Source: Escherichia coli
GTDB taxonomy: Bacteria; Pseudomonadota; Gammaproteobacteria; Enterobacterales; Enterobacteriaceae
Assembly: GCF_001677475.2 (NCBI RefSeq)
Contig: NZ_CP015229.1
Length of the DNA stretch: 64,000 bases
Direction: 5' to 3' (one strand)
The position numbers are program-made. Shown here piece by piece: positions 18,801 through 19,287 of this stretch. How positions within the stretch are numbered: the stretch's first letter is position 1; each line of letters opens with the position of its first letter.

Positions 18801-19287
18801 GCCAGCCGCGATCCTGCATGGTGTTGAGCAGGGTGCGCATATGACGACGCGAGCAGCTCAATAACGCTGCCAGTTCGTTGAGCGTTGTGTCCTGCGATTT
18901 ACCCTCGCAGCATTGCCACAGGCGGATGAACTGTTGTTGCAGACGAGCAGATGGCATAAAAGGGGAACTCCTGCGCAAAAGTCAGCAATTTTATTTTCCC
19001 TATATTAAGTCAATAATTCCTAACGATGAAGCAAGGAGGTGCCCCATGCGTCAGTTTTATCAGCACTATTTTACCGCGACAGCGAAGTTGTGCTGGTTGC
19101 GTTGGTTAAGCGTCCCACAACGATTAACCATGCTTGAAGAGCTGATGCAGTGGGAGGGGAGTCATTCTGACTACTGATTTGCGGACATCATGTGTGACTG
19201 AGTATTGGTGTTAATCGCCACGCCAGCAGTGATTATCTGCTGGCTTTTTTCTTTTTGGCGATTGAGTGCCGGACGGTGTACAAACTA

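Follow-up and report, generated by a model that had tools for sequence, protein, structure and literature searches.

The window analysed here, the whole stretch of 64,000 nucleotides, carries the genes thiB, espY2, sgrR, sgrS and leuD in that order. Gene thiB lies on the minus strand at 15146-16141, and is separated from sgrR by an insertion of about 1 kb relative to K-12 (16295-17304), which carries an espY2-type effector gene. The transcriptional activator gene of sgrS, sgrR, occupies 17299..18957 on the minus strand (552 codons plus stop). Its product presents 98.9% amino acid identity to K-12 SgrR in a tblastn comparison, and matches the Pfam domains SgrR_N (148 bits) and SBP_bac_5 (76 bits). 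The 3' 370 nt of sgrR, which adjoin the espY2 insertion, are far more diverged from K-12 than the remainder of the gene. On the other side of sgrS, leuD is found on the minus strand at 19285..19890, convergent with sgrS, with its stop codon at 19285, 33 nt past the SgrS end, and 97% identity to K-12 LeuD (tblastn).

Between sgrR and sgrS lies the divergent control region (18958..19024), which holds the SgrR-dependent sgrS promoter and is identical to that of K-12 except for two substitutions. A simple sigma-70 consensus scan of this control region flagged no sgrS promoter. The promoter is activator-dependent, so the silence of the scan fits and is uninformative. Conservation of the sgrR-sgrS promoter region has been reported (PMC2760817).

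The SgrS small RNA is located on the plus strand at 19025..19251 (227 nt). In a covariance-model search it is a full-length match to Rfam family RF00534, covering model positions 1-232 without truncation, with 228.9 bits against a gathering threshold of 37 and E=2.5e-64. The RNA is divergent from sgrR and lies between the thiamine transporter genes and leuD, which is the synteny described for SgrS (PMC2760817). Its base-pairing block, CATCATGTGTGACTGAGTATTGGTGT, spans 19186..19211 and is identical at 26 of 26 positions across all 16 aligned Escherichia, Salmonella and Citrobacter sequences, K-12 included. Within the block, CUGAGUAU is the complement of AUACUCAG, found in the 5' UTR and ribosome-binding site of K-12 ptsG; the strain's own ptsG is outside the window. 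The seed is therefore what is expected of SgrS, namely conserved, single-stranded and complementary to the ptsG ribosome-binding site. Only this core complementarity was used for the SgrS-ptsG pairing. Predictions of a full-length SgrS/ptsG duplex gave -56 and -44 kcal/mol, and were rejected as over-extended, having ignored intramolecular structure.

Downstream of the seed, a putative 3' Hfq-binding module is present, composed of a small hairpin, a Rho-independent terminator and a U tail. The small hairpin is placed at 19206..19220 by the predicted fold (UGGUG-UUAAU-CGCCA), and its K-12 equivalent folds as GGUG-UAAAAU-CACC. The terminator (19222..19250, from a terminator scan and the fold) has an 8-bp stem, a 7-nt loop and then TTTTTTCTTTTT. 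Its stem, GCCAGCAG/CTGCTGGC at 19222-19244, is the same as the K-12 stem, and is followed by the T-run; the loop and the tail differ from those of K-12. The U-tract is interrupted after six U, reading U6-C-U5 against U8 in K-12, which could change the Hfq-binding 3' tail.

Within the 5' half of SgrS, where the SgrT coding sequence is placed in this RNA, an intact sgrT is found at 19046..19177 on the plus strand. It has 43 codons plus TGA (ATG and 42 further codons), with the start codon at 19046 and the stop at 19175-19177, ahead of the seed that begins at 19186, and its translation is MRQFYQHYFTATAKLCWLRWLSVPQRLTMLEELMQWEGSHSDY. Over residues 3-37, the product scores 50 bits with Pfam family PF15894 (SgrT), for which the cut-off is 27 (E=2.4e-13). 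The Shine-Dalgarno sequence AGGAGG is located at 19034..19039, 6 nt before the ATG. The core of SgrT, with its aromatic and polar repeats, its leucines and the motif QRLxMLxxLMQWE, is present and aligned in all 16 homologues. The original prediction of an intact 43-codon sgrT with an AGGAGG Shine-Dalgarno is thereby confirmed: the reading frame stands inside the RF00534 match and its Pfam score is far above chance. Public contigs that carry the exact SgrT of the window number at least 1000, and the protein is named there "glucose uptake inhibitor SgrT [Escherichia coli]".

In comparison with K-12, whose SgrS and SgrT are the experimentally characterised reference, the whole SgrS is identical at 197 of 226 aligned positions (87.2%). 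The two loci agree in promoter region, in transcription start and in the divergent placement of sgrS relative to sgrR. From the transcription start to sgrT codon 30 the match is 110/111, and the single difference in this 5' part is AGGAGG in place of the K-12 counterpart GGGGG; all remaining differences are 3' of sgrT codon 30. In the stretch between sgrT codon 31 and the seed, agreement falls to 34/50, the seed block itself is conserved at 26/26, and from the seed to the terminator end the match is 27/39. The segment formed by sgrT codons 31-43 and the pre-seed spacer (19136..19185, plus strand) is haplotype-specific: it matches K-12 at 34/50 positions, against 46-50/50 for other Escherichia without setA. 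Residues 1-31 of SgrT are the same in the window and in K-12, yet the C-terminus is EELMQWEGSHSDY in the former and EGLMQWDDRNSES in the latter. The loop and post-seed hairpin sequences also differ, as does the U tail. These values bear out what was first noticed from the sequence, that the seed and terminator are conserved while SgrT and the 3' part of SgrS outside the seed depart from K-12; full identity to K-12 sgrS was looked for by alignment, and the value obtained is the 87.2% given above.

The difference at the Shine-Dalgarno sequence has a predicted structural consequence. When the folds are compared, a GGGG...CCCC hairpin is formed over the Shine-Dalgarno sequence in K-12 and is not formed in the window, where AGGAGG is outside any such hairpin. 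The K-12 hairpin, GGGGGTGCCCC, was shown by mutagenesis to repress SgrT production (Wadler & Vanderpool 2009, PMC2760806). Because this inhibitory GGGG/CCCC hairpin is absent, SgrT is probably translated more efficiently from the window allele than from that of K-12. The stem-loop over the sgrT ribosome-binding site, which is due to the K-12 G variant, was found in only three of 15 E. coli strains (PMC2760817). Hence, AGGAGG is the commoner form, from which K-12 departs. We considered whether the exposed AGGAGG might compensate for the loss of SetA. This idea was rejected, given that Escherichia sp. MOD1-EC7003, which has setA, also carries AGGAGG; it is further weakened by the K-12 G variant being a minority single-nucleotide change (PMC2760817).

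Judged from its sequence, the region holds an intact sgrR, a conserved control region, a full-length sgrS with sgrT, seed, hairpin and terminator, and a convergent leuD. We are thus highly confident that the locus represents the sgrR-sgrS/sgrT module for glucose-phosphate stress, as carried by an E. coli other than K-12 in a common haplotype without setA, and nothing in the sequence evidence contradicts this assignment. From the K-12 and Salmonella literature (PMC4021124, PMC2760806, PMC3901232), the module would be expected to work as follows. Accumulation of sugar phosphates would lead SgrR to activate sgrS, and the seed, with Hfq, would pair with the ptsG ribosome-binding site, and also with manXYZ and other targets, blocking translation and causing mRNA decay. 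Separately, ribosomes would translate SgrT, which would bind EIICB-Glc (PtsG) and stop uptake. K-12 SgrT inhibits glucose transport by binding EIICB-Glc (PMC3901232), and by analogy with K-12 and Salmonella the same role may be ascribed to the C-terminal variant found in the window. Any read-through of the terminator would run antisense into leuD and yield no setA message.

The most conspicuous departure of the locus from K-12 is the absence of setA. When K-12 SetA was used as a tblastn query, no match was found anywhere in the 64-kb window, so that the K-12 arrangement, with setA directly downstream of sgrS, is not present. Sun and Vanderpool are said to have found in 2011 that setA is co-transcribed with sgrS in K-12. 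In that strain setA lies downstream of sgrS and is SgrR-activated (PMC4021124). At the K-12 setA site, the window has a junction spacer (19252..19284), such that about 1.26 kb of K-12 sequence is replaced by 33-40 nt: the BLAST alignment with K-12 breaks off at 19250 and restarts at 19291. No remnant of setA was found in the 33-nt spacer, which has no local similarity to the K-12 interval. The same spacer is found in ATCC 11775, O157:H7, E. albertii, E. whittamii, Escherichia sp. E1V33 and strain SCPM-O-B-8794, all of which lack setA and the last of which is 92% identical to the window.

The junction is frequent, and cryptic Escherichia lineages have it as well. A junction-spanning query was covered over at least 80% of its length in 2157 of the 5426 complete E. 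coli genomes, and in the other complete genomes its match stops at the end of sgrS. A setA query found the gene in 3241 of the 5426. Together, these counts indicate that about 40% of complete E. coli genomes are without setA and have this arrangement. Given that K-12 is atypical both in the hairpin that sequesters its Shine-Dalgarno sequence and represses sgrT translation and in having setA downstream, caution is advisable in carrying K-12 results on the contribution of SgrT or on SetA in stress recovery over to these roughly 40% of E. coli, which include B2 uropathogens.

The closest known relative of the allele is that of the type strain ATCC 11775, which like CFT073 belongs to phylogroup B2. 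Its 227-nt sgrS has the same sequence as that of the window, with no change in sgrT, AGGAGG, seed or terminator, and the identity extends through the 33 nt that separate it from leuD. There too sgrR, sgrS and leuD follow one another with no setA, and sgrT is annotated as "glucose uptake inhibitor SgrT". The two differ in the flanks only: ATCC 11775 is without espY2 between thiB and sgrR, and identity in the surrounding genes is about 97%. The setA-less haplotype is shared by O157:H7, which also has the espY2 insertion between thiB and sgrR and an sgrS 99% identical to that of the window. Unlike the window, which has ATG, its sgrT starts with ATT, presumably abolishing SgrT (PMC2760817, PMC4021124). 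SgrS of CFT073 and of O157:H7 had been reported to share 88% identity with K-12 and 99% with one another, with one of the O157 changes destroying the sgrT start codon, and the synteny of the region had been drawn with setA marked (Horler & Vanderpool 2009, PMC2760817). The window therefore carries the ordinary published CFT073-type sgrS/sgrT. As the exact allele, the 88% identity and the O157 start-codon variant were all published in 2009, the importance of the finding is small beyond correct annotation; the genus-wide two-haplotype structure around the setA indel is only a mildly new angle. More distantly, SgrS of Salmonella and Citrobacter are dual-function RNAs with an identical seed block and terminator stem and a conserved SgrT core (...SWL...SAPQRLKMLEELMQWE). 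They are unlike the window in having an SgrT of 37-40 residues that ends just past MQWE, in having setA downstream, and in their 5' halves, only about 65-70% identical to that of the window.

In order to place the window within Escherichia, it was compared with K-12 and with complete genomes in RefSeq. The window is collinear with K-12 positions 59.2-121.6 kb, at 97.3-98.2% identity over about 62 kb. Three differences stand out, namely the espY2 insertion (16295-17304), the setA gap and an end segment that is not found in K-12 (61958-64000); in this comparison no IS insertions were found in the window. Shigella dysenteriae type 1 was weighed as the source and judged unlikely, in view of this collinearity, the lack of IS insertions and the E. 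coli labels on the exact proteins of the window. The original prediction had read the sgrS allele as a sign of a divergent Escherichia lineage that is not a K-12 derivative. The strain is indeed not K-12, as the figures over about 62 kb and the 87% identity of sgrS show, yet it is an ordinary E. coli. Nor can the allele serve as a marker of divergence: the sgrS of the type strain is identical, so it is uninformative in this respect, and the junction is present in 2157 of 5426 E. coli genomes.

Three other readings of the locus were weighed. A non-coli Escherichia species or cryptic clade as the source of the window is very improbable. This reading would draw on the best matches among the 5426 complete RefSeq E. 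coli genomes, which reach only 97.7% for 16100-24200 and 98.5% for 25000-49000; values this low indicate a lineage poorly represented among complete RefSeq genomes. However, an identity to E. coli below about 95%, as a non-coli source would give, was not found, since the values against K-12 over the 62 kb are inside the E. coli range and other Escherichia species, sampled by representative genomes, reach only 89-95% identity to the window. Moreover, LeuD, LeuB and EspY2 proteins exactly like those of the window are labelled Escherichia coli on 50-60 contigs, and over 7.7 kb the window shares 99.97% identity with a draft assembly, GCA_019141245.1. It is also improbable, if somewhat less so, that sgrT on this haplotype is a coasting relic, with only SgrS base-pairing under selection and SgrT neither made nor needed. 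The start-codon change from ATG to ATT on the same allele in O157:H7 speaks for it (PMC2760817), as does the small contribution of natively expressed SgrT to stress rescue in K-12 (PMC2760806). The last seven SgrT residues, moreover, are wholly unlike those of K-12, and outgroup SgrTs stop at 37-40 residues, which suggests an unconstrained tail. A relic would not be expected, however, to keep a reading frame of exactly 43 codons in every Escherichia species without setA that was sampled, despite 5-10% nucleotide divergence. Such a frame is found in all those examined (ATCC 11775, E. albertii, E. whittamii, E1V33 and SCPM-O-B-8794), with SgrT ending in MQWEGS(H/D)(S/F)(D/E)Y. Among them pN/pS is below 1 in all pairs (0.15-0.70), at low power given 4-16 substitutions per pair. 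In addition, the canonical AGGAGG with its 6-nt spacing is unsequestered in the predicted fold, core residues 3-37 match the Pfam model, and codons 2-30 are those of K-12 SgrT, which is functional. The claim that sgrS/sgrT is maintained independently of setA is thus upheld for the setA-less Escherichia examined, with the reservation that the loss of sgrT in O157:H7, on the same haplotype, shows selection on SgrT is not absolute.

The remaining reading concerns the history of setA, for which the gene neighbourhood outside Escherichia has to be considered. A seed-pattern scan of species-representative genomes yielded 44 loci, which are a sample and not a census: the scan did not return the E. 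coli type strain, S. enterica subsp. enterica or E. fergusonii. Gene setA follows sgrS in 37 of the 39 loci outside Escherichia, and two to three others end within 200 bases of sgrS. The loci too short to show setA are L026 (K. indica), L036 and L037 (K. pneumoniae), and in the genera of K. indica and K. pneumoniae setA is seen after sgrS in other species. SetA is encoded directly 3' of sgrS in Citrobacter, Salmonella, Klebsiella, Raoultella, Enterobacter, Siccibacter, Superficieibacter and Pluralibacter, with full-length matches at 77-89% amino acid identity to K-12, a divergence similar to that of SgrR and LeuD. Given this position of setA in other enterobacterial genera, the gene is ancestral at the site. 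From these comparisons, setA appears to have been removed by an old deletion, on a haplotype spanning sgrT codon 31 to the leuD stop, and its absence appears to be inherited and not a recent event in this strain, since the deletion haplotype is common to about 40% of E. coli and to several other Escherichia species. As for the loss of setA that had been noted from the sequence, the gene is absent and ancestral in other genera as that claim requires, but the loss dates far back and is not confined to the lineage of the window.

Within Escherichia, both K-12 and Escherichia sp. MOD1-EC7003 have setA, and among the 3241 E. coli genomes that have it, 3228 carry a copy at least 99% identical. The data fit two old haplotypes with some exchange between species, where the sequence that can be compared is short (about 90 nt and 200 nt). 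One reading, somewhat less likely than not, is that the stretch bounded by sgrT codon 31 and the leuD stop is an old two-state Escherichia cassette, with setA and a K-12-type sgrS 3' half in one state, and no setA and a window-type 3' half in the other. The setA-less state would be older than E. coli, the state with setA would have moved between species, and K-12 SgrS would be a recombinant whose 3' half travelled with setA. A still less likely course of events is that the setA-less state is the ancestral one in Escherichia, and that the haplotype with setA (sgrS 3' half, setA and leuD stop) was re-introduced or introgressed into K-12-type E. coli. Re-introduction would agree with the occurrence of the setA-less haplotype, at species-level divergence, in E. 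albertii, E. whittamii, E1V33 and SCPM-O-B-8794, and the near-uniform setA just mentioned would make the other haplotype young in E. coli. The window LeuD ends in AFMR, like the FMR of Citrobacter and Salmonella, against AFMN in K-12, and in the sgrS 3' half the window matches C. werkmanii at 36/55 and 36/39 positions, against 31/55 and 28/39 for K-12. The setA block of MOD1-EC7003, with 0-3 mismatches per 100 nt to K-12 next to an sgrR with 3-19, points to exchange between species. Yet K-12 SetA is 87-89% identical to that of Citrobacter and Salmonella, the same range as SgrR (84-87%) and LeuD (88-92%), as vertical descent predicts; no donor was identified; and the leuD flank of K-12 is no farther from the outgroups than that of the window. 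Furthermore, a long-lived dimorphism accounts for the same data, over the same short comparable sequence, and on either account the lineage leading to the window haplotype has at some time lost setA.

Protein clusters at 90% identity were also tried as a haplotype marker and rejected, because both C-terminal types are mixed within every cluster. A tentative idea that both haplotypes occur in E. albertii was dropped after the clustered sequences were read.

The divergence between the window and K-12 is concentrated beside the indels. At the sgrS 3' end there are 25 mismatches per 100 nt, and the last 200 nt of leuD, where identity to K-12 is 89%, compared with 98% in the remainder of the gene, present 19 and then 8 mismatches per 100 nt; farther off, the values are 0-4. 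The setA block of MOD1-EC7003 is nearly identical to that of K-12, and its sgrR is about 7% diverged. On both flanks the window-type allele is nearer to the outgroups than that of K-12, with regard to the FMR end of LeuD and to the sgrS 3' half, which is nearer Citrobacter. With such sharp haplotype boundaries, the setA indel illustrates on a small scale an old indel polymorphism that is flanked by diverged sequence within a small-RNA gene. The same pattern of divergence adjoins the espY2 insertion, at the sgrR 3' end.

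When the K-12 locus (L001) is compared with that of Escherichia sp. MOD1-EC7003 (L046), which carries setA, the 3' half of sgrS and the first 360 nt of setA present 0-3 mismatches per 100 nt, against 3-19 per 100 nt in the adjoining sgrR. Given that the setA block is near-identical in the two loci while its neighbor is diverged, the alignment suggests the setA haplotype was transferred recently between Escherichia species. Among the 3241 E. coli carriers, 3228 have a setA with an identity of 99% or more.

The final 200 nt of leuD (window 19285-19490) are 89% identical to K-12, in comparison with 98% for the other part of the gene, and the C-terminal residue of LeuD also differs: K-12 has N, whereas the window shares R with every outgroup. 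The diverged 3' flank and the differing residue indicate the setA indel drags diverged sequence into an essential biosynthetic gene.

A further difference from K-12 is a 1-kb insertion between the TPP riboswitch/thiB and sgrR (window 16295-17304), found by comparison with the K-12 sequence. This insertion contains an ORF on the + strand (16500-17069) for a 189-aa protein, for which Pfam returned zero matches. In O157:H7, this same gene is present at the identical site with the annotation "T3SS effector EspY2", and the exact 189-aa protein carries the EspY2 name in public records. The 3' end of sgrR, which adjoins the insertion (17305-17669), has 8-28 mismatches per 100 nt relative to K-12, far above the 0-4 mismatches per 100 nt of the remainder of the gene.

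In the O157:H7 strain 8368 locus (L003), sgrT (4147-4278) is an intact CDS in the RefSeq annotation, and its protein shares accession WP_001248768.1 with that of the E. coli type strain, ATCC 11775. Despite this annotation, codon 1 of the O157:H7 strain 8368 gene is ATT, which published work describes as a start-codon knockout (PMC2760817, PMC4021124). The exact-pattern scan of species-representative genomes missed ATCC 11775, although the pattern occurs in that genome. Hence, absences in this survey should not be over-read, as the scan or its underlying data appears incomplete.

Rfam also matched other elements in the window. The leu leader (24010-24159), the TPP riboswitch upstream of thiB (16160-16259), and STnc40 and naRNA4 (51395-51464 and 51868-51945), a REP-derived element near secA/mutT, are each at the expected K-12-syntenic position, with a 34-nt repeat offset between window and K-12 in the REP-derived element. 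A strong match (105.5 bits) to PssrA, "Plasmid-encoded Shigella sRNA A", lies on the + strand at 45659-45748, at the chromosomal ftsA 3' end and ftsZ upstream region (about 105.2 kb in K-12), which shows this family also matches core chromosomal sequence. In K-12, this region carries the antisense RNA StfZ.

Beyond aroP, the last 2 kb of the window (61958-64000) do not align to K-12, and no ORF of at least 100 aa lies wholly within them. The segment matches, with 98-99% identity, one known in other E. coli, where its annotations include a T6SS tssD (Hcp), a bacteriocin immunity protein and a pyocin-S2/colicin-DNase-like protein, and it is fully covered in about 1057 genomes.
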